Made by a program: the position numbers and the translations under genes
Shown: positions 8,083 through 32,833 of the stretch, piece after piece
How positions within the stretch are numbered: position 1 is the stretch's first letter
Layout of the letters: each line of letters opens with the position of its first letter
From: Nitrospinota bacterium
Lineage (GTDB): Bacteria > UBA8248
Assembly (NCBI GenBank): GCA_009839615.1
Contig: VXPH01000008.1
Span: forward strand, 10,949 to 74,948
Length of the DNA: 64,000 bases
Reading direction: 5' to 3'
Notes under the pieces: generated by a model
Told to the model about the DNA's origin: nothing
The model's database searches: none
What the model saw: only the letters and a program-made list of their open reading frames with translations

Positions 8083-8385
8083 CTATAGCTTCAGCAGGTT
8101 GATCTCGTCGAGATCCGTGGATTCGCGGTTTCTGTAGATCAGCACCACGATGGCCAGCCCGATGGCGGCCTCCGCCGCGGCCACCGCCATCACGAAAAAC
8201 ACGATCATCTGGCCCGCCATCGAATCGAGGAAGCGGCCATAGGCCACGAACGCCAGGTTCGCCCCGTTCATCATCAACTCGATGCACAAGATGACGACGA
8301 TGGCGTTTCTGCGCACCACGACGCCCACGACGCCCAGGGAGAAGAGAACCGCACTCAATATCAGATAATGCTCGAGCGGCGCCAC
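8083..8385 (-). CDS. nuoK: NADH-quinone oxidoreductase subunit K
   Basis: 100 aa, three TM helices; position and size. Confidence 0.88.
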
Positions 8386-8397
8386 GTCCTACCCCTC

Positions 8398-8916
8398 CTA
8401 GCGGCTTCGCCGGCGCGCCAGTACCACGGCGCCGACGATGCCCACGAACAACAAGACGCCCATCGCCTGAAACGGCAGGACGTAATCCGTCAACAAGAGG
8501 TTTCCGATAATCTGCGTGTTGCCCAGCTCGCTCACGCGCTCGGGCGGAAAACTCCCCTTCTTTCCCGTCATGAGGGAGGTGGAGAGGAATACCTTGAGCA
8601 GCATGCTGAAGACGGCGAGCCCCGCGATGGCGCCCAGAAGCTTCTGGCCGGGCAGGCGCAACTCCCGCTTCTCCTCCCTCCCTAAGTTGATCAGCATCAC
8701 CACGAACAGGAAGAGCATCATGATCGCGCTGGCGTAGATGATCACCTGAACGATGGCGACGAACTGCGCGTGAAGCGAGAGATAAAGCCCCGCGAGGCCC
8801 AGGAAGGTCAGGATCAGGGCAAGTACGCTGTAGAGCGGGCTGGGGAACGCGACGACGGCTATTGCGCCCACTGTCGTCACCACCGCCAGGAAATAAAAAA
8901 ACAGGGAACTGGCCAC
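8398..8916 (-). CDS. nuoJ: NADH-quinone oxidoreductase subunit J
   Basis: 172 aa membrane protein; position between nuoI and nuoK. Confidence 0.85.
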   Translation of the reverse strand: MASSLFFYFLAVVTTVGAIAVVAFPSPLYSVLALILTFLGLAGLYLSLHAQFVAIVQVIIYASAIMMLFLFVVMLINLGREEKRELRLPGQKLLGAIAGLAVFSMLLKVFLSTSLMTGKKGSFPPERVSELGNTQIIGNLLLTDYVLPFQAMGVLLFVGIVGAVVLARRRSR

Positions 8917-8961
8917 TACCGCCCATCCTCCAGCGGGCGGGCGCCCGCTTCAAATCGAACC

Positions 8962-9441
8962 CTAGACATACGTGAGCAGGTTTTTCTCTTCATAGCGGGC
9001 ATGAAGCTCCGGATAATCCTCGGTCCGCTCCACGAGCAAATCGCCCTTCTCATAGAGGAACTTGCCCCGGTCGTCCTGACAGAATTCATACTCGTTGCCC
9101 AGTACGACCGCTCCGACCGGGCAGGCCTCTTCGCAGTATCCGCAGAAGATGCAGCGAAGCTCGTTGATCTCGTAAATGCTGGCGTAGCGCTCGCCCTTGG
9201 AAGTGGGCGCCTCGGGGTCGTTCTCCTCCGATTCCACATAAATACAGTCCACGGGACAGGCCGCCGAGCAGAGCTTGCACCCCACGCAGCGCTCGAGACC
9301 ATCCTCCCAGCGCAGCAGCTTGTGGAGGCCGCGGTAGCCCACGGGCATCTCCTCTTTGACGTCGGGGTATTGCACGGTCACGCGGTTTTTGAAGGAATGT
9401 CTGATCGTCAGCCACAACCCCTTGCAAATCTCGCCTAACAT
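8962..9441 (-). CDS. nuoI: NADH-quinone oxidoreductase subunit I (2x[4Fe-4S] ferredoxin)
   Basis: Two CxxCxxCxxxCP motifs (CVGCKLCSAACP, CIFCGYCEEACP). Confidence 0.92.
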   Translation of the reverse strand: MLGEICKGLWLTIRHSFKNRVTVQYPDVKEEMPVGYRGLHKLLRWEDGLERCVGCKLCSAACPVDCIYVESEENDPEAPTSKGERYASIYEINELRCIFCGYCEEACPVGAVVLGNEYEFCQDDRGKFLYEKGDLLVERTEDYPELHARYEEKNLLTYV

Positions 9442-9468
9442 GGAACCTCCTCCCCCTCACACGGCCCG

Positions 9469-10449
9469 CTAGCCGATGAAAACGACGGCGGCGGCCGTGA
9501 GTATCACGTTCACGATGGACAGCGGCAGAAGCACCTTCCATCCAAAACCCATCAGTTGGTCATAGCGCAGGCGCGGCGTGGAGGCGCGCAGCCACATGAA
9601 GAAGAACATGAACGCCAACACCTTGATCAGGAACCACAGGACGGGCGGCAGCAGCGGCCCGCGCCATCCGCCGAGGAAAAAAGTCGCCCCCACCGCCGAG
9701 AGCGTAATCATGCTGCAGTACTCGGCGATGGAGTAAACCGCAAAGTGCATGCTGCTGTACTCGGTATGAAAACCGCCCGTGAGTTCGCTCTCGGCCTCGG
9801 GCAAATCGAAGGGCGCACGGTTCGTCTCCGCCAGCATGCAGATGACGAACAGCAGAAAGCCCAGGGGCTGCAAGACGATGTAGGGCATCCCGGCCTGGCC
9901 CTCGACGATTCCCTTTAAGCTCAGGGTGCCCGAGATCATGACCACGCCCAGAAGCGACATGCCGAGCGAGAGTTCGTAGCTGATGAGCTGGGCCGCGGAG
10001 CGAAGGCCGCCGATGAGCGGATACTTGCTGTTCGAAGCCCATGAGCCGAGCACGATGCCGTACACGCCGATGCCCGCCATGGCGAAGATGTAGAGGATGC
10101 CGACGTTCACGTCGGCCAGCACCAGGTCCACCTTCTGGCCGAGCACGGTCACGGAATCGCCGAAAGGCACCACGGCGAAAGCGGCCAGCGCCGGAATGAG
10201 CGTGACGGCGGGTGCTAAAACGTAAATCACCTTGTCCGCCTGAGCGGGGATGATGGTTTCCTTGAACATGAGCTTGATCCCGTCCGCGATGGGCTGCAAA
10301 AGCCCCGAAGGACCCACGCGGTTGGGGCCTACGCGCACCTGTACGAGCGCGAACACGCGCCGCTCCATCCAGGTCATGTAGGCGGCGAGCAGCAAAAGCC
10401 CGCCGAAGCCCACGAGCACTTTCCCGAGTATGATGAGCAGCGTAACCAT
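9469..10449 (-). CDS. nuoH: NADH-quinone oxidoreductase subunit H
   Basis: 326 aa, 8 TM helices, [22 protein letters not shown] motif. Confidence 0.92.
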
Positions 10450-13047
10450 CTATGCGCCCACCTCCTGGGGCTTCTCCGCCTTGCGGACCTGGATCTCCAC
10501 GCCCTGGCGGCCCGGCGCGCCGCCGGTGTTCAGCGCCGATCCCCCGTGTGCGCGCAAACAGCCCTCCGGCGCGAAGGCGACGCCCACGGGCGCGTTCTTG
10601 TCGACATGCGCGGGAAGCCGCACGAGAACGCCTGCCACTTCGAATTCCATGAGTTCACCGTCCACAACTCCCAGACTCCCTGCATCGCTCGGCGAGAGGG
10701 CGAGCGCGGCTTCGGGCATGTCGGCCAGATGATGGGCCGACCCCGCATAAGCTCCCGAGAGCCACAAGACGGGCGTCAGCAGCATCCTCAAGCCCGGCGC
10801 CTGCGCTTCTTTCTCCGGAATCTGCGCGATCTGGTAGGCGCGCCGCCCTTCTCTCTTGAGATGCAGACCCTCGTCGGGAATACGGCCGAAGGCGTCCGCA
10901 TAATCGCCGACCAGCGAGCGCGCCTGAATCCGGATTTTGTCCAGCGCGTTCGCCCGCATGGGCCGCTCCATCGCCTTGGCGATATCGGCGAAGGCCCGCC
11001 ATGCTTCGGGGACCATCTTGTCGATCATCGGCTTGAGCGCGCGCGGGAGAGACTGCGCCCTGCGCTCCAGGTTCGTGACGCTGCCCGCCTCCTCATACAG
11101 CGTGGGCGCGGGGATCACGACGTCCGCGTATTCTGCGCTCGCGTTCAGGTGAGAAGTCTGCAGGACGACGAATTCGGCTTTCTCCAGCGCTTCTCTCGCC
11201 CGCGCGCCGTCGGGATGCTCAGCCACCGGGTCGCAGCCCAGAACGTAAAGCCCTTTCAGTTCACCGCTCCCGAGACCATCGAGTATGCCTCTTGCATCTC
11301 TGCCGGCTTGCGCGCCGGGCGCCCTTCCCCACGCCTCCGCGCAGGCGGCTCGCGCGGCCTCATCCGACAAATCGCCGCCGGGCAGGGATTCGGGGTGCAA
11401 GCCCATGTCGATTGCGCCTTGTAAGTTCGGCGCGCCGGCCGCGAAGAGCATGTTGGCGCGGAGCAGGAGCCCCAGGTTGATAGCCTCCGATACGGCGACC
11501 TTCCCGGTCTCCCCGGGGCCTGAGAGTATGCTCACGGGGCCGTCCGCCGCCAGGGTCGCCCGGGCGGCGGTCATGATGTCATCAGACGGCACATCGGCCT
11601 CTTCGCACAGGCGGTTCAAGTCCACGGAACCCAGGAGTGCGGCGTAGTCTTCCGCGTTCTCCCCTTCGGGTTTCGCGCCGCCGTCCGCGAGGCATATCGC
11701 CAGCGCGCGCAGCGTCCGCGAGATGCCGCCCAGCACCGGCACCAGATGATGCACCCGGCTCTGAACGCGCAAGTCGATGCGCCTTTGGTTCACGTTGACG
11801 ACCACCGCGCCCGCCCGGTGCGCTTTTCTGATCTGAAGCGCGAGTATGGGGTGCTGCGTGAACGGGTCGCTGCCCACGATGATGACGGCCTTCGAACGCC
11901 CCAACGCCTCGATGGAGCCCGCACCGCCTACGCCGTCCAGGGCGGCGCGCTGTAAGTCCGTCTGCACGATGTCGCGCGGATGAATCCGGCTATCCACGTG
12001 GTTGGTTCCCAGAACCGAGCGCATGAAGGCGCCGAACTGATAGGCGGTTTCGTTCGTGGAATGGGCTCCGCCCAGGCCGGCGATTGCGCCGCCGCCCGCT
12101 TCCTCGATAATTGAGCCCAAGCCCCGCTCCGCCTCGCCGATAGCCTCCGCCCAGCCGACTGGCGTCAGCTCGCCGTCTTTTCGGATCATCGGCTGGGTGA
12201 TGCGCCCCTCGCCGTGCGCTCCGCTCCAGCCAAAGCGCGCGACGTCGCAAATCCAGGTGTCGTTGACTTTTTCGTTCTCCGCCGCCGTGACGCGCTTGAT
12301 CTCGCCGTCCTTCGTCCAGACGCCCTGGCGGCAGCCCACGCTGCACAGCGTGCAGGGACCTTGCGTTTCCTGCATCTCCCAGACGCGGGCGGTGAAGCGG
12401 TATTTGTTGTCCGTGAGCGCGCCGACGGGGCAGATGTCGATGACGTTGCCGGAAACGATGCTCGTGAGCGGGAGGTCTTCGTAGATGCCCACCTCGGTCT
12501 TGTCGCCCCGCTGCGCCCAGCCGAACTCCGCCCCGCCGTCGATCTCCTCGGTGAAGCGGATGCACCGGGTGCAGTGCACGCAGCGGTTCATCTCCGGCTT
12601 GATGAAGGGGCTCATCTCCTTGGGCGGATAAATGCGCCGGAACTCGTGCGTCCTACTGATCGCCTTGCCGTAGGCCATGGTCTGATCCTGCAGGGGGCAT
12701 TCGCCGCCCTGGTCGCACACCGGGCAATCGAGCGGGTGGTTCTTGAGCAGGAACTCGAACACCCCCTCCTGGGCCTCGATGACGCGCGGGGTCACGGAGC
12801 TGATTACCATGCCCTCGGCCGCATACGTGGCGCAGGAGGGCTGGAGCTTGGGTATCGGCCTGCCGTTTCCGGCGTCGAGCACCTCGACGAGACAGGCCCG
12901 GCACTGGCCCACGATGGAGAGGTTCTTGTGGTAGCAGAAATGCGGAACGTGCGCGCCGATGCGGAGCGCGGCCTCCAGCACGGGCAGACTCTTGTCCATC
13001 GTGATGCTCTGGTCGTTGAATACGAAGGTTACCTGCTCATTCGACAT
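10450..13047 (-). CDS. nuoG: NADH-quinone oxidoreductase subunit G (75 kDa, molybdopterin-like)
   Basis: 865 aa. N-terminal 2Fe-2S and 4Fe-4S Cys clusters (CYHKNLSIVGQCRACLVEV; CPVCDQGGEC; CVHCTRCIRF), then a molybdopterin oxidoreductase-like domain. Confidence 0.92.
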   Translation of the reverse strand: MSNEQVTFVFNDQSITMDKSLPVLEAALRIGAHVPHFCYHKNLSIVGQCRACLVEVLDAGNGRPIPKLQPSCATYAAEGMVISSVTPRVIEAQEGVFEFLLKNHPLDCPVCDQGGECPLQDQTMAYGKAISRTHEFRRIYPPKEMSPFIKPEMNRCVHCTRCIRFTEEIDGGAEFGWAQRGDKTEVGIYEDLPLTSIVSGNVIDICPVGALTDNKYRFTARVWEMQETQGPCTLCSVGCRQGVWTKDGEIKRVTAAENEKVNDTWICDVARFGWSGAHGEGRITQPMIRKDGELTPVGWAEAIGEAERGLGSIIEEAGGGAIAGLGGAHSTNETAYQFGAFMRSVLGTNHVDSRIHPRDIVQTDLQRAALDGVGGAGSIEALGRSKAVIIVGSDPFTQHPILALQIRKAHRAGAVVVNVNQRRIDLRVQSRVHHLVPVLGGISRTLRALAICLADGGAKPEGENAEDYAALLGSVDLNRLCEEADVPSDDIMTAARATLAADGPVSILSGPGETGKVAVSEAINLGLLLRANMLFAAGAPNLQGAIDMGLHPESLPGGDLSDEAARAACAEAWGRAPGAQAGRDARGILDGLGSGELKGLYVLGCDPVAEHPDGARAREALEKAEFVVLQTSHLNASAEYADVVIPAPTLYEEAGSVTNLERRAQSLPRALKPMIDKMVPEAWRAFADIAKAMERPMRANALDKIRIQARSLVGDYADAFGRIPDEGLHLKREGRRAYQIAQIPEKEAQAPGLRMLLTPVLWLSGAYAGSAHHLADMPEAALALSPSDAGSLGVVDGELMEFEVAGVLVRLPAHVDKNAPVGVAFAPEGCLRAHGGSALNTGGAPGRQGVEIQVRKAEKPQEVGA

Positions 13048-20670: not shown

Positions 20671-20875
20671 GTCCTGCTCCTTTAGCGTGCAAAAAGCCAG
20701 GGCCTTTTCTACGCGCACTTCAGGCCTAAGTCCAACGACGGCGGGATTTCACGGGGTCTTGCGGCCAACAGTCATCCCAAAGCAAACCGGAAATTCCCTC
20801 TCCATGTCTGACACGGCTGCGCGCGGTGTGCTAATCTGGCGGGGGCAATCTGTTCTCCAAAAGGAGCATCGCAAC

Positions 20876-21904
20876 ATGATACGAGACGACGTATTCGTCT
20901 TCGACAACGTGGTGCATATGTACGACTACTCGGACGAGAACCTCGTCTCGGAGCAAAGCGAATACGACCGCCACTACCACGTGAGCAAGGTGCTGGGCAG
21001 GAGGCGGACCGCACCCACGGACGTCTACGCGAACTGGCACCCGGTGGAGGGCTTCAAGCGCCGCTGGAGCGTGGAGGACATGGGCCGCCTCGTCTTCGAG
21101 GATTCGGGCACCGACATGGCGATGGCCCAAGCCGTGCCCCTGTTCGATCTGTATAAAGACGGCTTCGCCCCCGTGAAGGCGCAGTATGCGTTCGCGCAGG
21201 CATATCCGGAGCGCTGCCTTTTCTGCGGGGCCGTGGACCCGATGTACCCCAGCGTGGCCGCGGCGTGCGAGGAGATGGAGCGCCAGGTGAAGGAGTGGGG
21301 TGCGAAATCCATCAAAATCTACAACGCCCACGTGGACGGGAAATCCTGGGCGTGCGACGACCCCGAAATCGCCTACCCCCTCTATGAGAAAGGCCGCGAA
21401 CTCGGCATCAGGGTATTCCAGTTCCACAAGGGAAACCCCATCACGCGGGCGAAGCTGAGTGACCTCTCACCGCTCGACATCGAGGGCGCGGCGCTCGATT
21501 TTCCGGATATGCTCTTCGGCGTCCACCACCTGGCGGTGCCGTATTTCGAGGAAGTCGTCTGGATGGCGAACCGCTATGAGAACGTCTTCCTCGTGTTATC
21601 TGGAATCGGCCACACGCCGATGATCGCGCCCAGAACCTTCACCGAATGGATGGGCAGGCTGCTGCGCGACGTGGGCTCGGAGAAAGTACTCTGGGGTTCC
21701 GAAATGGCGCTTCTGGGAAACGCGAAGCCGGTGATTGAGTGGATATGGGATATGGAAATCCCCGAATCCATGCAGGATGACTACGGCTACCCGCAGATCA
21801 CCGAAGAGGACAAGCGCAACATCCTGGGACTCAACCAGGCGCGCATCTTCGGCGTGGATGTGGAGGCCAAGAAACAGGAACTCTGGAACGGAGCGGCACG
21901 ATGA
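20876..21904 (+). CDS. amidohydrolase-2 (TIM-barrel metal-dependent hydrolase) family protein
   Basis: 343 aa from ATG 20876 (AAGGAG SD at -9). Amidohydrolase-2-like (HxH-type start FVFDNVVHMYDYSD, GVHHLAVPYFEEV..). First gene of a co-directional overlapping operon. Confidence 0.7.
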   Translation: MIRDDVFVFDNVVHMYDYSDENLVSEQSEYDRHYHVSKVLGRRRTAPTDVYANWHPVEGFKRRWSVEDMGRLVFEDSGTDMAMAQAVPLFDLYKDGFAPVKAQYAFAQAYPERCLFCGAVDPMYPSVAAACEEMERQVKEWGAKSIKIYNAHVDGKSWACDDPEIAYPLYEKGRELGIRVFQFHKGNPITRAKLSDLSPLDIEGAALDFPDMLFGVHHLAVPYFEEVVWMANRYENVFLVLSGIGHTPMIAPRTFTEWMGRLLRDVGSEKVLWGSEMALLGNAKPVIEWIWDMEIPESMQDDYGYPQITEEDKRNILGLNQARIFGVDVEAKKQELWNGAAR

Positions 21905-22239
21905 ACGAGCACGAAGCCCTCGTCACCGACGTCCAGGACATCATCGAGACACAAATTCGCCCGCTTCTCAAGATTCACGGCGGCGGCATCACGCTCGAGC
22001 GCGTGAGCGAGAACGGCGAAGTGTCGCTCCGCTTCGAGGGCGCGTGCCGCGGCTGCATGCTCAAGAGCGTCACCTACGCCCTGGGCGTCCGCCAGAAGCT
22101 CATGCAGCACCCGGGCGTCACGGACGTCGCTGTGGAGGGCGTTCGCCTTTCGGATCACGCCATCAAACGGGTGGAGAAATTCTACTCCGGCTATTCGTTT
22201 TGGGTGGGGCATCCGCTCAAAGACCAATCACCGTCTTGA
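21901..22239 (+). CDS. NifU-like (Nfu-type) Fe-S cluster scaffold domain protein
   Basis: 112 aa; IRPLLKIHGGGITLERVSENGEVSLRFEGACRGCM resembles the Nfu/NifU C-terminal domain with its CxxC pair. ATGA overlap with the upstream stop. Confidence 0.7.
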   Translation: MNEHEALVTDVQDIIETQIRPLLKIHGGGITLERVSENGEVSLRFEGACRGCMLKSVTYALGVRQKLMQHPGVTDVAVEGVRLSDHAIKRVEKFYSGYSFWVGHPLKDQSPS

Positions 22240-23525
22240 TCGCCTCGCGCTACCAAACACGAAAAGAACTGCGCCTGTGGTACGGGTGGGTGATCCTCCT
22301 CACCGTCTTCATCATACTGACGGTGACCGTCGGGATCCGGAATTCTCTCGGAGTCTTTTTCAAGGATATCTCCGGCGAGTTCGGCTGGAACCGCGCGCAG
22401 ACGGCCGCCGCCTTCACCATAGGCATGCTCGGGCAGGGGATGGTGGCTCCTTTCGCGGGCTGGGTGCTGGAGCGCTTCAACATGCGCTGGGTGATCGGGG
22501 CGGGCATTTTCGTGAACGGCGCAGCGCTGATTATCGGAGCCTACATCGGCGCGCTCTGGCATTTTTACGCCATGTATTTCCTGCTCTCGCTGGGCTTCGC
22601 CTTCACGGCCAATCTGCCCCAGGTCCAGCTGCTCTCGAACTGGTTCGTCATCAAGCGCGGGCTGGCCATGGGTTTCTCGCACGCCGCCCAGGGGCTGGCA
22701 CCCATCGTGAACATCTTCACCCCCCTGCTCATCGCGAGCCTCGGCTGGCGGGGAAGCTACCTGACGCTGGCGGGGGTCGTGCTTCTTTTCGTTTTTCCCT
22801 TCGCCCTGACGCTGCTGCGCGACCACCCCAGAGAGAAGCGAACCGCACCCGACGCGCCCTTTCTCACCTCCGAGGAGTTCTCCCGCGCCCGCGTCAGGGC
22901 CGCCGTCATCATTCCTGCGGACAAAGAGAAGGAAACCGCCTCCTTCTCTTTTTTCTTCACCCGCAGGTTCATGCTGCTCGGAGGCATTTACGGCAGCATC
23001 GCGTACATATTCACCGCCGTTCTGGTGCATCTGATCCCCCACGCGACGGACCAGGGCTTCTCCCCCTCGGGCGGAGCCGCGCTCTTCGCCCTCTACGGAG
23101 CGGCCCTCGTCGTGGGAAACGGGCTGAGCGCGATTTCGGATCGCATCGGGAGGCTCCCCACCTACATGGTGGGCGTAGTGTGCGGCGTGGCCGCTTGTTA
23201 TCTCCTGGCCGCCTTTACGCGCGAATCGCCCGCGTGGTGGATATACGCGGGCGCGATGGGCCTGGGCTTCGCCTTGGGCTTCGTCCGGCCCACGGCGTCC
23301 TCTCTTCTGGCGGATCATTTCGCGGGGCCGGGCTTCGGCCTGGTGAACGGGTGCGCGATGATGGTCTTCTCTTTTATAGGCGCTCTCGGGCCCCTCGTGA
23401 CGGGCATGCTTTTTGACGCGAGCGGAAACTACTACTCGGGCTTTCTCCTCGCGGGCGTCATGTTCATCGCGGGCGCGATTTTCGTCGTGAGCCTCTCGCG
23501 CATGCCGCGTGAAGAGCGCACTTAG
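22236..23525 (+). CDS. MFS transporter, oxalate/formate antiporter (OFA)-like
   Basis: 12-TM MFS protein (WYGWVILL..GIRNSLGVFFKDISGEFGW..). Start proposed at TTG 22236 overlapping the NifU-like stop (TTGA). The 5' part of ORF 21735-23525 is antisense/overlap artefact. Confidence 0.75.
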   Translation: MIASRYQTRKELRLWYGWVILLTVFIILTVTVGIRNSLGVFFKDISGEFGWNRAQTAAAFTIGMLGQGMVAPFAGWVLERFNMRWVIGAGIFVNGAALIIGAYIGALWHFYAMYFLLSLGFAFTANLPQVQLLSNWFVIKRGLAMGFSHAAQGLAPIVNIFTPLLIASLGWRGSYLTLAGVVLLFVFPFALTLLRDHPREKRTAPDAPFLTSEEFSRARVRAAVIIPADKEKETASFSFFFTRRFMLLGGIYGSIAYIFTAVLVHLIPHATDQGFSPSGGAALFALYGAALVVGNGLSAISDRIGRLPTYMVGVVCGVAACYLLAAFTRESPAWWIYAGAMGLGFALGFVRPTASSLLADHFAGPGFGLVNGCAMMVFSFIGALGPLVTGMLFDASGNYYSGFLLAGVMFIAGAIFVVSLSRMPREERT

Positions 23526-23529
23526 GACC

Positions 23530-24798
23530 ATGAACGTCATGCGGGACGATTCGCGCTTCTGGTACGGCTGGGTGGTTCTGGCCGTGGTCTTTTTCGTCAT
23601 GATCACCCTCATCGCCTTTCGCGCCACCATCGGGCCCTTCTTCAAGGAAATCTCGGGCGAGTTGGGCTGGAGCCGGGGAGCGACGGCGGCGGCTTTTTCC
23701 ATCGGCATGCTGGCCCAGGCGATCATCTCGCCCCTGGCGGGCATCTTTTCCGATCGCTGGAGCATCCGGGCGTCGATGTCGGCCGGCGTCGTGGTGTTCG
23801 GCCTCTCGCTGCTCATCGGAAGCCAAATCACCTCGCTCTGGCATTTTTATCTGATGTACATCGGCCTGTGCGCAGGCTTCGCCGCGAGCACGTGGATCGC
23901 CCAGGTGCCCACGCTCTCGAACTGGTTCGTGAAAAAAAGAGGCCTGGCCCTGGGCATTTCCAACACCTGCCAGGGAGGGGCCTTCTGTCTGAACATCGCG
24001 ACGCCCTACCTCATCGCGGCCCTGGGCTGGCGGATGAGCTATCTGGCGCTTGCGGGCGTGACGCTGCTCATCGTGCTTCCCGTCTGCATCATTTTTCACA
24101 GGGATCACCCCTCGGATAAAGGCACCATCGCCGACGCTCCCTTCGTTCAGAACCTGCCGGATGAAGAAGCGCCGAAACCAATGCCTTCATCCGCCGATGA
24201 GCCGCCGGTCTCTATGTATAACCTGCCGTTTTTCCTCTTTCTGGGCTCGTTTCTGCCCATGGCGTACGCCTTCGCGGGCATGCTCGTCCATCTCGTTCCC
24301 CACGCCACGGACCAGGGTTTCTCGCTCGAGACCGCGAGCGTGCTGTTCGCCATATGGGGACTTTGCCAGGTGGGGTCTAACCTCATCAGCCCGGTCTCCG
24401 ACAGGCTCGGCCGCGTGCCGACGTACCTCATCGGCAACGTGCTCGGAATCGCCTCCGCTCTGGTTCTGGCCACCTACGAAAAGGGAGACCCGGAGATCCG
24501 CTTCTACATCGGCACGATAACCAACGGCGCAGCCCTGGGCCTCATACGGCCCACCGGCTCGGCCATCCTTGCGGATTACTTCGAAGGCCCCGGCTTCGGG
24601 CGCGTGAACGGGGTGGCGATGATGGGGTTTGCCCTCTGGGGCTCGGCGGGGCCATGGACCACGGGTTTCCTCTTCGACCTGCACGGCTCCTATCTCTGGG
24701 GCTTGTCGGCCTTCGCGCTCATGTTTTTTCTATGCGGCTTCTTTGCCGTGTTGCTCGGCTGGACGAAAAGAGATAAGAGGGGAACGTCTCCCGCCTGA
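23530..24798 (+). CDS. MFS transporter, OFA-like, paralog of preceding gene
   Basis: ~422 aa; clear paralog of the previous gene (RFWYGWVVLAVVFF..FKEISGELGWSRG). Start at ATG 23530, or GTG 23509. Confidence 0.78.
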   Translation: MNVMRDDSRFWYGWVVLAVVFFVMITLIAFRATIGPFFKEISGELGWSRGATAAAFSIGMLAQAIISPLAGIFSDRWSIRASMSAGVVVFGLSLLIGSQITSLWHFYLMYIGLCAGFAASTWIAQVPTLSNWFVKKRGLALGISNTCQGGAFCLNIATPYLIAALGWRMSYLALAGVTLLIVLPVCIIFHRDHPSDKGTIADAPFVQNLPDEEAPKPMPSSADEPPVSMYNLPFFLFLGSFLPMAYAFAGMLVHLVPHATDQGFSLETASVLFAIWGLCQVGSNLISPVSDRLGRVPTYLIGNVLGIASALVLATYEKGDPEIRFYIGTITNGAALGLIRPTGSAILADYFEGPGFGRVNGVAMMGFALWGSAGPWTTGFLFDLHGSYLWGLSAFALMFFLCGFFAVLLGWTKRDKRGTSPA

Positions 24799-24827: not shown

Positions 24828-25733
24828 GTGCCGATCGAAAGAGTCGATGGATTCTACTTTCATCCCACCTCGCGCGAGCGGGTCCTGGCGCAGCGCCACG
24901 CGGACCCGTCCAAAACGCCTTGGACCCCGATGGAAAAACCGCTCGCGGATAGCAAGGTCACCTTGGTATCCACGGCCGGCATCTTCATGAAGGGCGACGT
25001 TTCTTTCGATTACGATAGAGAGCGCCGCGAGGGCACGTGGGGCGACCCGACCCACCGGGAGATCTCCCGAACGGCGGGCCAGGACGACGTGGAGTACTCG
25101 CACTTACACGTCGACACTTCGTTCATGGCCGAGGACAGGAACGTGTCATGGCCGGTCGACATCTTCACGGATTTCGAGAGGGAGGGGAAAATCGGCGCAC
25201 TGGCCGAGACGCTCTATTCCATCATGGGCTACATCCCGAATTTCAACCCGCTCGTGAAGCGCACCGCGCCCCTGATGATCGAAAAGATGAAGGCGGAGGA
25301 CGTGGACGCGGCCTTTCTTTACCCGGTCTGACCCTTGTGCAACCGGTCCGGCGGACTGCTTCAGCGCGAAATCGAAAAGGCGGGAATCGCCACCGTCATC
25401 ATCTCGAACGTACCCGAGACCACCGAGCGCGTCTGCGTGCCCAGGGCCGTCTTCGTGCAGTATCCCTTCGGGCGGCAGTTGGGCCTCGTGGGTGATTACG
25501 CGGGCCAGCGCCGGATTTGCGAGGACATGGCCGCGCTGTTGGTGGAGGCGCAAGCGCCCAACGCCTACCGGCACCTGCCCTATGAGTGGCCCGAACCGCC
25601 CGAGACCACCAAATGGCAGCCGGACGTCCCGGCGCCCATCTTCGCCATCCGCCAGGCCAAAGCGGGCGGACAAAATCTGCTGGATGATTACAAGGACGAG
25701 GAACGCGCCGCGTATTCCGACGCCGAGCGCTAG
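24828..25733 (+). CDS. glycine/betaine/D-proline reductase selenoprotein-B (GrdB/PrdB) family protein with in-frame TGA (putative selenocysteine) at 25329-25331 in a U-P-L-C motif
   Basis: GTG start 24828 with GAGGA SD. The two ORF-track fragments 24828-25331 and 25335-25733 are in the same frame, separated by one TGA. Read-through gives ...AFLYPV-U-PLCNRSGGLLQREIEKAGIATVIISNV. This matches the remembered GrdB Sec region (..U-G-T-C-T-R-C-G...VKEIERAGIP.V.I..); the match is from memory and was not aligned. N-terminal VTLVSTAGI also matches. Confidence 0.6.
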
Positions 25734-25775: not shown

Positions 25776-27182
25776 CTACGCCTTCTCCAGCCTGGCGAAG
25801 TTGAGGTAAAACCGTCCGTCCGCTTCCACCCGCAAGAGGGTTTGCGAGAATTCTTTCGATTCCACCCGGTAGAGCCGCTCTTCTCCCATCGCACGGGGTG
25901 TTTCGGTGAGCGTCTCTCCATCGAGGCCGCAGGTCTCCTCCCCCATCAGGGAGAGGATGGTGGGGGCCAGATCTATGTTGCCCGTCGGCGCGTCCACCCG
26001 CGCGCCCGCCGGAAAAGCGGGGCCGCACGCAATCATGAAATTACGAAGCTCATAGGGGCTGCACGAGCCGTGCGTACCGCCGCTTCCCTTGTTGTTGACC
26101 GATGAATACCCCCAGCCGGGGAGTGCGCCCTTGCGGTTCTCGCCCGGCAAGAAACCATCGCCCCACTGAAAGCCCATGAGCAAATCCGGCGCGCGGGGTC
26201 CGCCGCAGCCCGCCAGGCCCAAGGACATCGTGCCCGGCAATGCGCCTTCTGCTCCGTTTCCATCTTTAGAGAATAGCGGCCCCGCCCAGTCCTTCGTCCG
26301 CAAAAAAGCGGCGAGTTCCTGAAGCGTTTTCTCCGATTCGGCGTAGAAAAGCGCCGCCCCCTCGCTGTGCGCCACTTGCCAACTATCACCACGGCCGGGG
26401 AGGTCCGCCATTTCCGCCTCCAGGTCGATCATCCCCGCCGTCGCCACGACCCCGTGATCCGAGAACAGGAGAAGATTCGTCTGCGGCCAATCATCGCGCT
26501 GCGCCTGAAACCTCTCCCAGAACGCACCGAACAGCCTGTCCACTCCCTCCAAGGCCCGGCGATGCGCGGCGCCTGCGGCGCCCTCGTGATGCTGCGTGTT
26601 GTCCGGCTCGCTCAGATGTATGACGAGCACAGCCGGTTCAAGCTTGGGAATCACGTAATCGAGCGCCAGGTCGAGCGCCCACACGCAGCGCGGAAGGTCC
26701 GGTTCGCCCCCAGCGGGGATTTTCCTGACCTCCTCGATTTTTCCGCGCCCCTCGGCAGGATACATCGCAACGGGGTGAATCAGGCGCGCGGCGCGGCCCG
26801 CGTTCCAGAGCCAGGCGGAACCGCTCGATGCGGCGCTGATGATGACGCCGCCGTCCAACCTCTCGGAAAAGGTGTCCCGCAGTAGCAGGCGCCCGCCCAT
26901 GGCGCGTTCCCAGGCAAGGAGATTCTCATACCGCCCCGTGGTGATGGTTTCGCCCAACTCGCGTGAATAGAGCGAATTGCCCGGCAGGCCGTGCTTTTCG
27001 GGGTAGACGCCGGTGGCAAGGCTCGATACGCAAACTCTCGTAGAAGTGGGAAACGTGCTGCGGTGATTCCGGAACCACGCGCCCCGCTCCGCCGCGGCCA
27101 GGAGATTCGGGGTTCTCTCCTCGCTCAGAGTATCGGCCCGTAAACCGTCGAACTGAATCGCGATGACGCGAGGCGAGGCCAT
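25776..27182 (-). CDS. alkaline-phosphatase superfamily enzyme (type I phosphodiesterase/nucleotide pyrophosphatase-like)
   Basis: 468 aa; N-terminal metal/nucleophile motifs (IQFDGLRADTL; FPTSTRVCVSS; GVYPEKHG) typical of NPP/PhnA-like AlkP-fold enzymes. Confidence 0.75.
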   Translation of the reverse strand: MASPRVIAIQFDGLRADTLSEERTPNLLAAAERGAWFRNHRSTFPTSTRVCVSSLATGVYPEKHGLPGNSLYSRELGETITTGRYENLLAWERAMGGRLLLRDTFSERLDGGVIISAASSGSAWLWNAGRAARLIHPVAMYPAEGRGKIEEVRKIPAGGEPDLPRCVWALDLALDYVIPKLEPAVLVIHLSEPDNTQHHEGAAGAAHRRALEGVDRLFGAFWERFQAQRDDWPQTNLLLFSDHGVVATAGMIDLEAEMADLPGRGDSWQVAHSEGAALFYAESEKTLQELAAFLRTKDWAGPLFSKDGNGAEGALPGTMSLGLAGCGGPRAPDLLMGFQWGDGFLPGENRKGALPGWGYSSVNNKGSGGTHGSCSPYELRNFMIACGPAFPAGARVDAPTGNIDLAPTILSLMGEETCGLDGETLTETPRAMGEERLYRVESKEFSQTLLRVEADGRFYLNFARLEKA

Positions 27183-27250
27183 CTGCTCTCCATCCCGAAA
27201 AAAAGCGGCGGGGGATTCCGCCCCCGCCGCACGTAAAGATCAGCCTGCTG

Positions 27251-28015
27251 TCAGGAAGCCTGCTCCGAGGCCTGCATGGCTTCTTCGAGTTGCGCGGGCG
27301 TCAGGGGGTCGCCCACGCCGATCATCGAATCGCGCGTCACGAGTTGGAAGAGCTGCGCCTCCGTCCAGTCCTCGGTTCCCGCCGGACGCTGGGGAATGAT
27401 GAGATAGCGGCAATCCGCGTTCGAATCGATGACGATGAGCTCCACGTCGTCGGGCGCATCGAAGCCCATGTCCTTCAAGGTTCCCCTCGGGTCCGTCACG
27501 GCTTTCGAGCGATAGGGAAAGCTCTTGTACCAGGTGGGGGGCTGCCCGAGGATCTGCCTCGGGTAGCACGAGCACAGCGTGCACACCACCATGTAGCGGG
27601 TCGTGTCGGTATTCTCGAGGGCCACCACGCGGTTGATCCCCGTGGTGTCGACCCCCACCTCGGCGCAGGCGGCGTCCGCGTCCGCCAAGAGCCTTTCCTT
27701 GAAGCCCTCATCCACCCAGGCGCGCGCGATGATGCGCGAACCGATGGCCGGGCTTTGGCCGTAAATCTCCTCCACCGCGCGCCGCATCTCGTCCGTCGTG
27801 AGGATGCCCTTCTCGCGGAGGATGCCCAACAGAGCCATAACGCGCACCTGATAGTAATCCAGATCGTGCTCGACCTGGGCCACGGCTCCTTCGCGGTAGG
27901 CGTCGTCGGACTGCATCCGCGCGTTGTGCGCTCCCGGATCCTGGCTGTAGGTGTGGGGATGGTCGCCGTGGTGGTGACCATGCCCGCCGTTGTGATGATC
28001 GTGTGAGTGCGCCAT
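27251..28015 (-). CDS. nitrile hydratase alpha / thiocyanate hydrolase gamma-like catalytic subunit (Co-type, VCTLCSCY) with His-rich N-terminal tail
   Basis: 254 aa. Residues 1-21 are MAHSHDHHNGGHGHHHGDHPH. The core carries the metal-binding claw VVCTLCSCYPRQILGQPPTWYKSFPYRSKAV and C-terminal IPQRPAGTEDWTEAQLFQLVTRDSMIGV, which resemble Co-type NHase alpha as recalled from memory. Confidence 0.85.
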   Translation of the reverse strand: MAHSHDHHNGGHGHHHGDHPHTYSQDPGAHNARMQSDDAYREGAVAQVEHDLDYYQVRVMALLGILREKGILTTDEMRRAVEEIYGQSPAIGSRIIARAWVDEGFKERLLADADAACAEVGVDTTGINRVVALENTDTTRYMVVCTLCSCYPRQILGQPPTWYKSFPYRSKAVTDPRGTLKDMGFDAPDDVELIVIDSNADCRYLIIPQRPAGTEDWTEAQLFQLVTRDSMIGVGDPLTPAQLEEAMQASEQAS

Positions 28016-28054
28016 GGTGTGCTCCTCGCTCTCGGGAGAGCCGGCGTATTCGTC

Positions 28055-28342
28055 CTAGACCGGCTCCAGCCAATGTTCGTAAATTTCGATATAGAGTTTG
28101 TCCTGCTTTTTCCCCGCCTCGTGATCCCAGAGATCGTTGATGTCGAACTCCACCCAATAGAGTTCCCTCATCGGCAGGCCGTCGCCGCCGTAGGCGAGAT
28201 TTTCGGGATTCTTGTATTTGCCGAAATAGCGGTTGATTAAACCGGTCTTGCCCTTCACGAAATACGTCGTCCGGTGGTGGCCGTCCGGGTACATCTCCTT
28301 GATGCGCACCCTGTCGCCCACGCGGAAGGTGGTTTCCTCCAT
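28055..28342 (-). CDS. nitrile hydratase beta subunit C-terminal-domain homolog (short, 95 aa; SCNase-alpha/ToyL-like half-beta)
   Basis: FRVGDRVRIKEMYPDGHHRTTYFVKGKTGLI...LYIEIYEHWLEPV matches the C-terminal SH3-like half of NHase beta. No N-terminal beta half was found in any frame nearby. Confidence 0.75.
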   Translation of the reverse strand: MEETTFRVGDRVRIKEMYPDGHHRTTYFVKGKTGLINRYFGKYKNPENLAYGGDGLPMRELYWVEFDINDLWDHEAGKKQDKLYIEIYEHWLEPV

Positions 28343-28425
28343 CGGAACGTCCCCTTTGCAGTTGAATCGACTCGAACTGAAATACTTACCTGAATTTTAC
28401 ACCGGGGAGGCTCTTTGTCCAGCCC

Positions 28426-29442
28426 CTATACCGCAAGCCCGTACACGCGCTTTGCGTTGGTCGTGAGAATCATCTCCTGCTCCGCTTCCGGGAGGCGGCT
28501 CAGGCCCGGAATATCCCGCGCGGGCTGGTGATAGCCCATGTCCGCCGGATAGTCCGTGCCGTAGAGAATCCGCTCCGCTCCGAGCGTCTTCGCCGCGAAC
28601 TCGAAGCAGTCCGCGTTGTGGATGATGGTGTCGTAGTAGAAGCGGCCGAAATACTGCTCGGGGTCCTTCGCGTCGTGCACCTTGGGTTCTCTGCGCTCGC
28701 CGTAGCCGTGCTGCCAGCGGCCCCGGATCCAGGGCACGAAGCCGCCCACGTGGGAGAGATAGAACCGAAGCCCCGGGAACCTGTCCATCACGCCGCCGAA
28801 TATCAGGCACGCCACCGCAACCGTGGTGTCGAGCGGGTTGCCGATGAAGTTCCTCAGGTAGAAATCCCTGAGCCGATCGTCTGAGCCAAGCACATTCGTG
28901 GGGTGCACGAACACGGGGGCGTCGAGAGCTTCGGCCTTCGCCCAGAAGACGTCCAGACCCGGATCGTCCAGATTCTTTCCCGCTACGTTCGAGGCGATCA
29001 TCACGCCTAAGTGGCCGTTCGCACACGCGCGTTCGAGTTCCGCCGCAGCGGCCTCTGGCGCCTGGAGGGGAACGGTGGCCATGCAGGAAAACTTGTCGGG
29101 ATACTCCCTGGCCAGCGCCGTCAAGCCGTCGTTCAGTGAGGCGGCCAGTTCCTTGTTCGCCTCCGCCTCCAATGTGTAGAGCGTCATGGCGGGGCCGATG
29201 GAGAGCACCTGGTGCGCGACGCCCATGCGCTCCATGTCGGCGAAACGCGACGGGAGCTCATAATAAAGGGGCGTGAGCTTGTTCCTGAGTTCCGACTCGC
29301 GCCCCAAAACCTTTCCACGCGTGATGAGCCACTCACCGTGTTGGTCGGCCTCTATCGACGCCGTGCGGCCGAAGCGGCCCGCGCGCACGTCCTCGATGAA
29401 CTGCCCGGGATAGATATGGGTGTGGGGATCGATCGCCGCCAT
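28426..29442 (-). CDS. amidohydrolase-2 family (ACMSD/LigW-like metal-dependent hydrolase or decarboxylase), copy 2
   Basis: 338 aa; DPHTHIYP start, conserved HVGGFVPWIRGRW, GTDYPADMGY. Confidence 0.8.
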   Translation of the reverse strand: MAAIDPHTHIYPGQFIEDVRAGRFGRTASIEADQHGEWLITRGKVLGRESELRNKLTPLYYELPSRFADMERMGVAHQVLSIGPAMTLYTLEAEANKELAASLNDGLTALAREYPDKFSCMATVPLQAPEAAAAELERACANGHLGVMIASNVAGKNLDDPGLDVFWAKAEALDAPVFVHPTNVLGSDDRLRDFYLRNFIGNPLDTTVAVACLIFGGVMDRFPGLRFYLSHVGGFVPWIRGRWQHGYGERREPKVHDAKDPEQYFGRFYYDTIIHNADCFEFAAKTLGAERILYGTDYPADMGYHQPARDIPGLSRLPEAEQEMILTTNAKRVYGLAV

Positions 29443-29528
29443 CTTCTTCTCTATCTCTTATAATAAAGGGAGGAGGCCCACACGGGCCCCCTCGCCGTAT
29501 GCCCGCCGGTTCGCTCTCGCCGCTGGCT

Positions 29529-30545
29529 CTACACGTCCAGCTTGTAGAGCTTCTTCACGTTCCCGTAGAGCATCTGCTCCTGCTCCTCCGCCGAGAAGCG
29601 CGAAAGCCCCGGGATATCCTTGGCCCCGGCCAGGTAGCCCATGTCGAAGGGATAGTCGGTGCCGTAGAGTATCCGGTCCACGCCGAGCGTCTTCACGGCG
29701 AACTCGAACGAATCCGCGTTGTGGATGATGGTGTCGTAATAAATCTTGCCGAAATACTGCTCGGGGTCCTTAGCACCATGCACCTTGGGTTCCCTGCGCT
29801 CGCCGTAGCCGTGCTGCCAGCGGCCTCTAATCCAGGGCGTGAAGCCGCCCACGTGCGAGACCAGGAACTTGATGTTCGGGAAGCGGTCGAACACGCCGCC
29901 GAAGATGAGGCAGGCGATGGATATCGTCGTGTCGAGCGGGTTGCCGATGAAGTTTCTGAGGTAATAGTCCTTGAGCCTGTCGTTGACCCCCATGACGTCC
30001 ACCGGGTGAATGAAGATCGGCACGTCGTGCTCGCACGCTTTGGCCCAGACGACGTCGAGCGCGGGGTCGTCGAGGTTCTTCCCCGCCACGTTCGAGCCGA
30101 TCTGACAGCCCAGATGACCGTTCTTCACCGCGCGGTCGAGTTCGGCCGCCGCGGCTTCTGGGTCCTGGAGCGGGATCTGCGCCATGCACAGGAAGCGATC
30201 GGGGTGTTCTTTCGTGAGCGCGGTGAGCGCATCGTTCAGCGATGCGGAGAGCTCCCTGTTGAGCCCTGCATCGAGCGCATAGTGCGTCATGGGCGGAACG
30301 ACTGAGAGTATCTGGATATCCACGTTCTGGTTGTTCGCCATGTCGCTCAGGCGCATCTCGACGTCGTAGGTTTCCTTCGGCAGCGGGTTCTTGTGAATCC
30401 GCTCCTCGCCGAGGACGGTGTTTTTCGTGACGAGTTGTTCCCACGGGTCGCCCGCTTCGATGGTGACGGCGTCGCCGAAGCGGCCCTGGCGTACGTCTTC
30501 GATGAAACTCTCGGGAGCGATGTGGGCATGGGGGTCGATGATCAC
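29529..30545 (-). CDS. amidohydrolase-2 family, copy 1 (tandem paralog of 28426-29442)
   Basis: 338 aa, GTG start with AAGGAG SD. About 65% identity to the neighbouring copy, visible also at nucleotide level (e.g. 28620-28680 vs 29700-29760). Confidence 0.8.
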   Translation of the reverse strand: MIIDPHAHIAPESFIEDVRQGRFGDAVTIEAGDPWEQLVTKNTVLGEERIHKNPLPKETYDVEMRLSDMANNQNVDIQILSVVPPMTHYALDAGLNRELSASLNDALTALTKEHPDRFLCMAQIPLQDPEAAAAELDRAVKNGHLGCQIGSNVAGKNLDDPALDVVWAKACEHDVPIFIHPVDVMGVNDRLKDYYLRNFIGNPLDTTISIACLIFGGVFDRFPNIKFLVSHVGGFTPWIRGRWQHGYGERREPKVHGAKDPEQYFGKIYYDTIIHNADSFEFAVKTLGVDRILYGTDYPFDMGYLAGAKDIPGLSRFSAEEQEQMLYGNVKKLYKLDV

Positions 30546-30671: not shown

Positions 30672-31901
30672 TCAAAACGCCTTGTCGATCACGATGCGCA
30701 CATTCCGCTGCCCCACCCTCACCGGCTGCGCCGTGCGGCCCTCGAGATCGCCTGCGCCCGCAGGCCCCGCCGAGCCGTCCGCGTCGAGGCGCGCCGAGAG
30801 CGTTACCACCCCCTCGAAGGGGACGCCGGGAATCATCACGTTCCTCTTCGATATCTCGAACGCCAGCGGGAAGCGGGGGTTCGCCACGCGCACGACCGCC
30901 AGCGGGGGGCCTCCGCCGCCCTTGCGCGCGATCAGGAACAAGACGGGCTTGCCTTCGGCCTTGTCCCGCAAGGCGGGGGCAACCTCGATAACGCCCGAGA
31001 TCACGTCTTCAGCCCCTTGCGTCTGCGCGGGCCTTTGCGCGGCTTCGCCTTTCGCTTCTTGCGAGAGAACGATCTCAATGTCTTTAGCACCCACCTGCAC
31101 AGGCCCGCGCGCGCCGCCGAAAATATCACCCGGTTCGGTCCCGACCTTTCCGTCCCCGTCGAGCTTGGCGACGAGGCGGACTTCCCCTTCGAACGCCACC
31201 CCCTGCAACATGACGTTTTGCTCGCTCATGGTGAACTCCAGGGGAAAGGCGGGGTTCAGGATGCGCATGACCGCCAGGGGCGGGCCGGGCTGTTTCCCGC
31301 GCGCGATGATGAAAATCGCCGCCTTGCCCTTCGCCTTTTCCTTGAGATTGGGCGCGACGCGCACCACGCCGCGAATCGTCTTGCCGCTCCCGGCCGATGG
31401 CTTCGGCTCTGGAGGCTGAGCGGGTTTTGGGGGAGATTTTTTCGCCACTTTCGGCGGAGGGGCGGTTCCGATTTGATCGATCACCACGTCCACGTTCTCA
31501 GCGCCCACGGAAACCAGGCCTGCCGCCCTTCCCTCGAAATCGCCTCTGACCAGCGGCCCCGGAACGCCGTCCGCATCGAGGCGGGCGCGCACGCGGACGC
31601 GGCCCGCGAACTTTTGCCCGCGCATCATCATGTCGTCTTTGGTGATCACGTATTTGTAGGGAAACCGCGTCTCCACCAGGCGCTGCACGGCCAGCGGCAG
31701 CCCCCCTTCTTCGGGTTCCACGATGATGAAGAGCGTGCGCGTTCGCCACGCCTTTACGGGCAGATTTGCGCTCATTCTTATGGTGCCCGAGACGGATTCC
31801 TTCGGCGGGCCGAGTTCGGGGAGGAGATCGCAACCGCTCAGAATCACGGAGAGACAAACCGCCGAGAGAGCGGCGCAAGGATTTTTGAATATGCGCTTCA
31901 T
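30672..31901 (-). CDS. lipoprotein with three tandem ~105-aa repeats of an uncharacterised domain
   Basis: 409 aa; signal peptide with lipobox LSGC. Three repeats share the pattern G.I/V..AP.L..KA.GK..LFIIAR....GPPLAV.R..NP.FPL.F......VM..G..FEG.V.L.ARLDADG..GP...GD.EG....PV.VG..NV.IVID. Confidence 0.7.
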   Translation of the reverse strand: MKRIFKNPCAALSAVCLSVILSGCDLLPELGPPKESVSGTIRMSANLPVKAWRTRTLFIIVEPEEGGLPLAVQRLVETRFPYKYVITKDDMMMRGQKFAGRVRVRARLDADGVPGPLVRGDFEGRAAGLVSVGAENVDVVIDQIGTAPPPKVAKKSPPKPAQPPEPKPSAGSGKTIRGVVRVAPNLKEKAKGKAAIFIIARGKQPGPPLAVMRILNPAFPLEFTMSEQNVMLQGVAFEGEVRLVAKLDGDGKVGTEPGDIFGGARGPVQVGAKDIEIVLSQEAKGEAAQRPAQTQGAEDVISGVIEVAPALRDKAEGKPVLFLIARKGGGGPPLAVVRVANPRFPLAFEISKRNVMIPGVPFEGVVTLSARLDADGSAGPAGAGDLEGRTAQPVRVGQRNVRIVIDKAF

Positions 31902-32833
31902 GGACTTACCCGTGGTGAATTCGCCCGCAGAAAAGCTTCCACCTCGCTCAGGCGGGGAAGCGCGGCCCTTCCCCCGAGGGCGGCACAGTTCATCGCGGCG
32001 ACCGCGTTTGCGAAGCGCAACGTATCCTCAAGACTCATCTTGCGCAATACGCCGTACAGGAATCCGCCATGAAACGTATCGCCCGCCCCCGTGGTGTCGA
32101 GAACATCCACATGAAAGCCCGGCGATTCGTAAAACCGCGTCCCGTCGAATGCGAGCGCGCCGCGCGCGCCCAGGGTGACGCCCGCCACCTCGGGTCCCAT
32201 CGCATGGAGCCGGCGCAGGGCTTCGCGGTGCTCGGAAACGCCGGTGAGGAGAACGGGAAAATCTTCCGCCGCCATCAGGTAATCCGTGAGGCTTATCAGG
32301 TCTTCGATCCCATCAGGCGCGCGCTCGGCATCCAGGAACACGGGCGTGCCCTCCTCGCGCGCCCACCGCGCGGCTGTGATTTCCGCCTCGACGTGATGAC
32401 CATCCAGATGCAGGGCGCGGCCCGCGCGCACGATGGCCTCACGAACATCCGCAGAGGCCAGGGAAACCTCGCGCCGCCAGAGTATCGTCCGCGAGCCTTT
32501 CTCCTCCCCGTCGCCTTCTTGCTGCACGATGATGAGGGCGAACTGGCTCGCGCGTCCTTGTTGCGTGACGACGCCTTCCACGTTCACGCCCTCGGCTTCC
32601 AGACTCGCAAGGGAAAACGCGCCCGCCTCATCGTCGCCCACCGCGCCGATGTAGGCTGCGCGCATACCCAAACGCGCCAGCGCCGCCATGGCCGTCGCTG
32701 CCTGCCCGCCGCCTGCGCGCGCCATCTCTAGAACTCCGCTCTTGGTGTTCGGTTTCGGGTATTCGCGCACCACGCAGAACTGATCCGCCGAGTTCAGGCC
32801 GATTCCCACGGCGTCGAATTTTTTCTGCGGCAT
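31898..32833 (-). CDS. PfkB-family carbohydrate/nucleoside kinase (ribokinase-like)
   Basis: 311 aa; GG motif GAVGDDEAG and C-terminal PfkB signature DTTGAGDTFHGGFLYG. ATGA overlap with the downstream lipoprotein gene. Confidence 0.82.
   Translation of the reverse strand: MPQKKFDAVGIGLNSADQFCVVREYPKPNTKSGVLEMARAGGGQAATAMAALARLGMRAAYIGAVGDDEAGAFSLASLEAEGVNVEGVVTQQGRASQFALIIVQQEGDGEEKGSRTILWRREVSLASADVREAIVRAGRALHLDGHHVEAEITAARWAREEGTPVFLDAERAPDGIEDLISLTDYLMAAEDFPVLLTGVSEHREALRRLHAMGPEVAGVTLGARGALAFDGTRFYESPGFHVDVLDTTGAGDTFHGGFLYGVLRKMSLEDTLRFANAVAAMNCAALGGRAALPRLSEVEAFLRANSPRVSP

Follow-up and report, generated by a model that had tools for sequence, protein, structure and literature searches.

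A conserved nitrile hydratase-family cassette with a cobalt-type alpha subunit and only the C-terminal half of beta, linked to ACMSD-like amidohydrolases

Nitrile hydratases (NHases) are major industrial biocatalysts whose beta subunit is considered indispensable for forming the substrate pocket and stabilizing the oxidized cysteines of the metal site. In the canonical cobalt enzymes, beta-Arg52, beta-Tyr68 and the hydrophobic pocket residues sit in the N-terminal domain of beta (beta-N), and in the enzyme from Pseudonocardia thermophila (PtNHase) beta-Arg52 and beta-Arg157 hydrogen-bond the oxidized cysteine ligands. Toyocamycin nitrile hydratase (ToyJKL) is a three-subunit NHase. Here we describe a cassette in a 64,000-nucleotide stretch of a Nitrospinota genome (GCA_009839615.1, contig VXPH01000008.1, positions 10,949–74,948; hereafter, the window) that encodes, in minus-strand order, two ACMSD-like amidohydrolase-2 paralogs (AH_A and AH_B), a stand-alone C-terminal domain of NHase beta (beta-C) and an NHase alpha subunit (alpha), followed by a gene of the AlkP/NPP superfamily (AlkP). 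The original prediction, an atypical NHase-family enzyme with an intact cobalt-type claw and a partner restricted to beta-C, was borne out by domain, motif and PDB matches, and all of the open reading frames (ORFs) that it named are present on the minus strand where it had placed them. With slightly better than even confidence, we propose that beta-C and alpha would together form a functional two-subunit cobalt-type NHase-family enzyme, derived from three-subunit NHases through loss of beta-N.

The alpha subunit belongs by domain and fold to the NHases. Besides matching the NHase_alpha family, it is 45–55% identical to cobalt-type NHase alpha chains in the PDB (E values of 1e-52 to 1e-62), and an AlphaFold2 (AF2) model of alpha alone superposes on NHase alpha chains with TM-scores of 0.82–0.89. 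The pLDDT of the model exceeds 90 in the core, is moderate in the N-terminal arm (N-arm) and falls below 50 for residues 1–34, which are predicted to be disordered. The claw has the full cobalt-type context V-C-T-L-C-S-C-Y, as originally predicted, and C145 to Y151 are invariant among 32 aligned sequences. Relative to locus L013, which forms with the window the closest unsaturated pair for such estimates, the ratio of non-synonymous to synonymous substitution rates (dN/dS) is 0.145 in alpha and 0.150 in beta-C, so purifying selection acts on both genes.

The NCBIfam equivalog cut-offs were reached by neither subunit: alpha scored 231.8 bits against TIGR01323 (cut-off, 249.85) and beta-C 72.5 bits against TIGR03888 (cut-off, 152.2), of which it covers positions 137–226 of 226. 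These scores, the absence of the substrate pocket that beta-N builds and a cassette without an amidase would fit a different chemistry (for example, hydrolysis that acts on isonitriles or on groups resembling thiocyanate or cyanamide) or non-catalytic metal binding by alpha and beta-C, with the ACMSD-like enzymes as the main catalysts. NHases slowly turn over isonitriles, and the complexes 2zph and 2d0q are among the fold matches of the alpha model. We nevertheless consider this explanation unlikely: alpha has an invariant claw and surrounding core whose closest counterparts are those of cobalt-type NHases, the thiocyanate hydrolase (SCNase) gamma model TIGR03887 scored lower (171.2 bits; cut-off, 291.45) and ScnB is absent.

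Our proposal of a two-subunit NHase-family enzyme depends on what became of beta-N. Beta-C aligns only with residues ~138–227 of full-length NHase beta chains in the PDB search, in agreement with its original assignment to the C-terminal half of beta, and no full-length beta adjoins alpha. Three beta-C residues (H22, R24 and T25) are invariant among 20 homologs, and R24 occupies the position of PtNHase beta-Arg157 (counted from the PDB alignment, in our own numbering). Beta-Arg52 belongs to the missing beta-N; alpha R78 and R79, in a DEMRR motif, are candidate substitutes. A tblastn search of the six frames of the 64 kb with three beta-N queries returned a single match with E < 0.01, which lies inside alpha (27889–27728, E = 3e-6), and a hidden Markov model (HMM) census of the window again found no beta-N gene and no gene resembling the P14K activator, as the original prediction had held. 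The gaps between the cassette genes are 39, 83 and 86 bp and therefore leave no space for a further gene.

The same pattern recurs across related loci. Models for beta-N, beta-C and alpha were run against 95 sources, made up of the window, 14 loci reached by way of homologs and 80 genome loci; the beta-N model was a clean HMM built from 17 stand-alone beta-N sequences. In the clade of alpha (the window, L001–L004, L006–L013 and L015), beta-C lies immediately upstream of alpha and no beta-N was found within ±10 kb; L005 was excluded from the beta-C upstream check because its sequence ends too early upstream. Among the other NHase loci, in which alpha is at most 56% identical, beta-N and beta-C are adjacent separate ORFs in 63, a full beta is fused in 2 and beta-N is fused to alpha in 2. 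Because these 63 loci carry adjacent beta-N and beta-C ORFs, the nearest relatives outside the clade (alpha up to 56% identical) are of the three-subunit type, of which the cassette has the separate beta-C and lacks the separate beta-N.

Alternatively, the enzyme could be an ordinary three-subunit NHase that receives beta-N in trans from a gene at another place in the genome. This reading would account for these closest relatives and for a canonical chemistry that requires beta-N residues, and the scans cover 64 kb here and ±10 kb in the relatives. It is nonetheless a distinctly improbable explanation, given that beta-N adjoins beta-C and alpha in 63 of 63 split-beta loci and in none of the clade, that the beta-N-less cassette is kept in non-syntenic contexts at 58–95% alpha identity and that independent loci with only beta-C and alpha occur in Chloroflexota (L025 and L043).

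The latter two (L025, on the Dehalococcoidia chromosome OZ253584 at ~9431–10582, and L043, Chloroflexota, at ~9480–10582) fall outside the clade and have neither beta-N within ±10 kb nor ACMSD-like neighbours; judged from these sequences, beta-N loss may have occurred more than once. Natural bacterial fusions of beta-N, a His-rich linker and alpha were also observed (P0032 and P0069, both Chloroflexota, L042 and L076), as were proteins that retain only a beta-N stub, followed by a His-rich stretch and alpha (P0028, P0047 and L018). These fusions and stubs look like intermediates between three-subunit and beta-N-less forms.

The single beta-N-like match in the window is the N-arm of alpha itself. 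The N-arms of clade alphas align with positions 9–50 of the clean beta-N HMM at 26–35 bits (27.5 bits for the window alpha), a segment that includes the DE-x-R motif carrying beta-Arg52 (our own numbering). Canonical alphas match only the second half of the model (3.6–30.7 bits) or not at all, and first-half matches above 25 bits are confined to loci in which beta-N is missing or truncated. Since first-half matches thus track beta-N loss, the alignment points to an N-arm that may in part make up for the lost domain.

Alpha begins with a His-rich tail, for which the original prediction had proposed a metal-loading role and which it had listed among the departures from described enzymes. The tail is present and the role is plausible by analogy, whereas the tail does not set the cassette apart: a 20-amino-acid stretch with at least five histidines precedes the alpha core in 23 of 25 clade alphas and also in 41 of 95 non-clade relatives, which makes the tail a general feature, although it is longest in the clade. 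The HMM scan found no P14K-like gene in the loci of most relatives with the beta-then-alpha order, and the tail thus appears to be a general trait of an activator-less NHase branch. Fused NHases of opisthokonts carry a His-rich stretch just before the alpha domain, with a proposed role in metal handling or spacing (PMC3323583). Cobalt capture by the tail is a reasonable inference: the tail, predicted to be disordered, would bind cobalt and pass it on to the claw, a task that otherwise falls to a P14K-type activator, and the enzyme would probably be self-metallating. Published work makes activity with less than a full beta plausible: cobalt can enter the alpha subunit of a three-subunit NHase without an activator (PMC7329996), and an NHase alpha by itself has been reported as active and fully modified (PMC11672702, citing its ref. 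861).

The most constant partners of the beta-C–alpha pair are the ACMSD-like enzymes. AH_A and/or AH_B orthologs were found with phmmer in all clade loci that reach upstream of beta-C, so that one or two ACMSD-family metal enzymes accompany the pair in each of these loci; AH_B orthologs occur in most clade loci and are missing from L010–L012. AH_A and AH_B are 65% identical to each other. Human ACMSD (4igm) is the best PDB match of AH_A (2e-47), AH_B matches ACMSD at 9e-46, and for both proteins ACMSD (~1e-46) lies far ahead of other amidohydrolase-2 decarboxylases (~1e-24). In alignments, both retain the HxH, H and D metal ligands and the catalytic His, within the motifs IDPH(T/A)HI, (V/I)F(V/I)HP, SHVGG and GTDYP. 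Human ACMSD binds the substrate carboxylate through Arg47 and, from the partner chain, Arg235; AH_B aligns both arginines, and AH_A has His at the Arg47 position. No NCBIfam model matched either protein.

Beyond the clade of alpha, the AH family comprises more than 120 clusters at 59% identity or above, mostly from Nitrospinota. One homolog adjoins a molybdenum hydroxylase, an ABC transporter and an AMP-ligase (L095), and another lies with TctC, a cupin and an FAD oxidoreductase (L096). Because other phyla have single copies without an NHase, the AH enzymes appear to be catalysts in their own right, for unsaturated or aromatic substrates that carry a carboxylate, and do not appear to substitute structurally for beta-N. 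More distant ACMSD-like genes lie beside three-subunit NHase clusters in a Burkholderiales metagenome-assembled genome (MAG; L052, ~8118–9167 (-), 171 bits to AH_A) and a Binatia MAG (L021, ~3140–4105 (+), 110 bits to AH_A), which hints that a link between NHases and amidohydrolase-2 enzymes extends beyond the beta-N-less clade.

The core of AH_A, usually AH_B, beta-C and alpha occurs in about ten distinct contexts in MAGs of Nitrospinaceae, Nitrospinae and Tectomicrobia, including three non-syntenic settings, in L009 (Nitrospinae), L010 (Tectomicrobia) and L097/L098 (L097 being from Nitrospinaceae). What follows alpha differs among loci: AlkP in the window, an Exo_endo_phos gene in L001–L003 and L097, no gene in L004, L006, L013 and L015, and, in three lineages (L009, L010 and L011/L012), a bicupin gene that adjoins alpha. 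Its product matches gentisate 1,2-dioxygenase (PDB 3bu7) at 3e-81 and scores equally with a 5-aminosalicylate dioxygenase model.

The two-subunit enzyme may convert a nitrile into its amide, and its metal site would be unusually open in the absence of the beta-N residues that normally line the pocket. The substrate would be a carboxylate-bearing nitrile, probably aromatic or derived from ring cleavage; a carboxylated aromatic or ring-fission nitrile is favoured over a phosphorylated nucleoside because the partners are ACMSD-like and gentisate-dioxygenase-like. The ACMSD-like neighbours could decarboxylate or hydrate the carboxylated compound, which the gentisate-dioxygenase-like enzyme may cleave in some lineages, and the N-arm with its DE-x-RR motif may partly stand in for beta-N. 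More tentatively, and as a possibility that we would not yet favour, alpha and beta-C could be catalytically complete, with the N-arm replacing beta-N, the tail loading cobalt and an open site serving a new substrate class (a carboxylated aromatic or ring-fission nitrile, or a non-nitrile C–N compound) together with a heteromeric ACMSD-like pair, mainly in Nitrospinota and Tectomicrobia.

Several points weigh against the proposal of a functional two-subunit enzyme. Beta-N normally supplies the second claw-stabilizing arginine and most of the pocket residues, which makes full activity without this domain a conjecture, and the absence of beta-N holds for the scanned 64 kb and ±10 kb. The cassette has no amidase that could account for the fate of the amide, and the MAGs that carry it represent just one or two related phyla. 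Homologs of the AH proteins with 62–66% identity occur in single copy without an NHase in other phyla, so the AH–NHase link may be lineage-specific. With regard to the N-arm, the PDB sequence alignment places it collinear with the normal alpha N-arm, the AF2 model of alpha alone puts it in the canonical alpha position, and DE-x-RR or DEMRR-like motifs are also found outside the clade in P0026, P0031 and P0033; compensation by the N-arm would be weakened if those loci carry beta-N.

Table 1. Coordinates of the cassette, its sequence elements and neighbouring genes in the window.
Feature	Position	Strand	Basis
AH_A, ACMSD-like amidohydrolase-2 paralog, first cassette gene	29529–30545	-	PF04909, 1e-34
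AH_B, second ACMSD-like amidohydrolase-2 paralog	28426–29442	-	PF04909, 2e-32
Sigma-70-like promoter match TGGACA-16-TAAAAT, just upstream of beta-C	28394–28421	-	Consensus match only
Beta-C, 95 aa, stand-alone C-terminal SH3-like domain of NHase beta	28055–28342	-	PF02211, 6e-21
Alpha, 254 aa, cobalt-type NHase alpha	27251–28015	-	NHase_alpha PF02979, 4e-71
His-rich tail of alpha, residues 1–21, MAHSHDHHNGGHGHHHGDHPH	27953–28015	-	Direct sequence reading
N-arm of alpha, residues 43–84, VEHDLDYYQVRVMALL...TTDEMRRAVEEI	27764–27889	-	Resembles first half of beta-N
Metal-binding claw of alpha, V144-C-T-L-C-S-C-Y151	27563–27586	-	Direct sequence reading
Intrinsic terminator between alpha and AlkP, GCGGCGGGGGCGGAATCCCCCGCCGC then TTTTTTT	27195–27230	-	
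AlkP/NPP-superfamily gene, 468 aa	25776–27182	-	Phosphodiest PF01663, 2e-31
PfkB gene	31898–32833	-	Pfam/NCBIfam

The genes of the window were originally described as co-directional and tightly spaced. They do share a strand, but the implied single operon does not hold, as an intrinsic terminator (10 G–C pairs and a T7 tract) separates the alpha stop codon from the AlkP start codon. The latter lies ~12 nt past the T-tract (window 27182–27205), which leaves no space for a promoter of its own; to be expressed, AlkP would depend on read-through of the terminator or on a promoter within alpha. A second, terminator-like hairpin (10 pairs, 8 of them G–C), whose T-tract is weak, is located in the 86 bp that separate AH_A from AH_B (29470–29493 (-)) and could be an attenuator or an RNA-processing site. 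The number of sigma-70-like matches (one) equals the number expected by chance (one).

Homologs of AlkP were found with phmmer in none of the 14 related cassette loci, and the protein has weak PDB matches restricted to its N terminus; its placement would fit a recent insertion on the downstream side of the cassette. The PfkB gene occurs in some of the syntenic loci only and is absent from L013, L009, L006 and L097. Because AlkP is confined to the window and lies behind a strong terminator, we place it outside the module, and we read both AlkP and PfkB as neighbours rather than pathway members, which removes the basis for the originally suggested phosphorylated nitrile substrate. A pathway for a phosphorylated, nucleoside-like nitrile (toyocamycin/preQ0 type) using the AlkP phosphodiesterase and the PfkB kinase, which the co-directionality of both genes with the cassette had suggested, is therefore highly improbable and already largely refuted by the absent conservation of AlkP and PfkB, and the conserved partners indicate aromatic or carboxylate metabolism instead.

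In the syntenic loci, ScpAB, two CoA-transferase genes, in some cases PfkB, and an Ig_CycH lipoprotein come before the cassette, and convergent MFS genes, EamA and nuo come after it; this synteny assigns the window to a Nitrospinaceae-like genome (L015 and L097). The gene immediately upstream of the cassette in the window encodes a 409-amino-acid lipoprotein-like protein with three Ig_CycH (PF23892) repeats (30672–31901 (-)), syntenic in L004, L011, L013 and L015. An operon that converges on the cassette (20870–24798 (+); syntenic in L013, L004 and L015) codes for a third Amidohydro_2 member of greater divergence, a protein with a NifU-like domain and a pair of MFS transporters that resemble lactate/monocarboxylate (MCT) and oxalate/formate carriers. 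The convergent operon further includes, just beyond these coordinates, an ORF of ~301 codons for a PrdB/GrdB-like protein, interrupted by a single in-frame TGA (24828–25733 (+), TGA at 25329–25331); its two halves match positions 18–143 and 151–234 of the 238 positions of D-proline reductase PrdB. The ORF is also found in L013 (12163–13068 (-)), where the context FPV*PLCNRSGG and the downstream frame are kept, and it probably encodes a selenocysteine (U-x-x-C) protein. Folding revealed no convincing hairpin resembling a selenocysteine insertion sequence (SECIS) (z = 0.47), and an Rfam scan of the window from 18 to 36 kb gave no riboswitch match.

If the proposal is correct, a conserved enzyme without half of beta would define a minimal functional NHase unit and give access to a scaffold with an open pocket, suited to nitriles that are bulky or charged. 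It would also provide a natural test of activator-free cobalt loading through a His-rich tail. Nitrospinota-type bacteria are regarded mainly as autotrophic nitrite oxidizers, and the cassette would add a transformation of organic nitrogen or aromatic nitriles to their repertoire. Literature searches on NHases without beta-N, NHases with ACMSD and NHases in Nitrospina did not find this architecture described.

The described systems each share part of this architecture. AH_A and AH_B resemble ACMSD in aligning over the full length and in keeping the metal ligands and the catalytic His, but the match is distant and, unlike ACMSD, they form a tandem pair tied to an NHase. The fused beta–alpha NHases of opisthokonts likewise have a His-rich stretch immediately N-terminal to the alpha domain (PMC3323583); their beta is complete, whereas here beta-N is missing and the stretch is a free N-terminal tail. 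Thiocyanate hydrolase ScnABC (2dd4) also has a split beta, with the small SH3-like subunit ScnA homologous to beta-C (6e-7) and the gamma subunit to alpha (1e-37). The cassette differs in lacking the beta-N-like ScnB and in an alpha that is nearer to NHase alpha than to SCNase gamma; with TIGR03887 below its cut-off and the NHase alpha score higher, we rejected an identity as SCNase. The originally suggested affinity to SCNase or ToyJ was thus not upheld, and no 7-deazapurine genes were seen. In comparison with the canonical alpha2beta2 cobalt NHases (Pseudonocardia thermophila 1ire and Bacillus RAPc8 2dpp), alpha has the same fold at 45–55% identity and beta-C retains Arg at the beta-Arg157 position, but the cassette has neither the N-terminal domain of beta nor an activator, and alpha carries a long His-rich tail.

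The closest overall likeness is to the three-subunit enzymes ToyJKL and AnhD/AnhE/AnhA of Streptomyces canus, which share the cobalt-type alpha claw, a separate beta-C of ~95 amino acids, the order beta-C then alpha and the lack of a P14K-type activator gene (PMC7329996). A pathway of the ToyJKL type was rejected on the distribution of AlkP and PfkB and on the aromatic or carboxylate character of the partners. Unlike ToyJKL and AnhDEA, all clade members lack the beta-N subunit of ~100 amino acids from the cassette, and the cassette is partnered by ACMSD-like enzymes instead of deazapurine or other nitrile-pathway genes.

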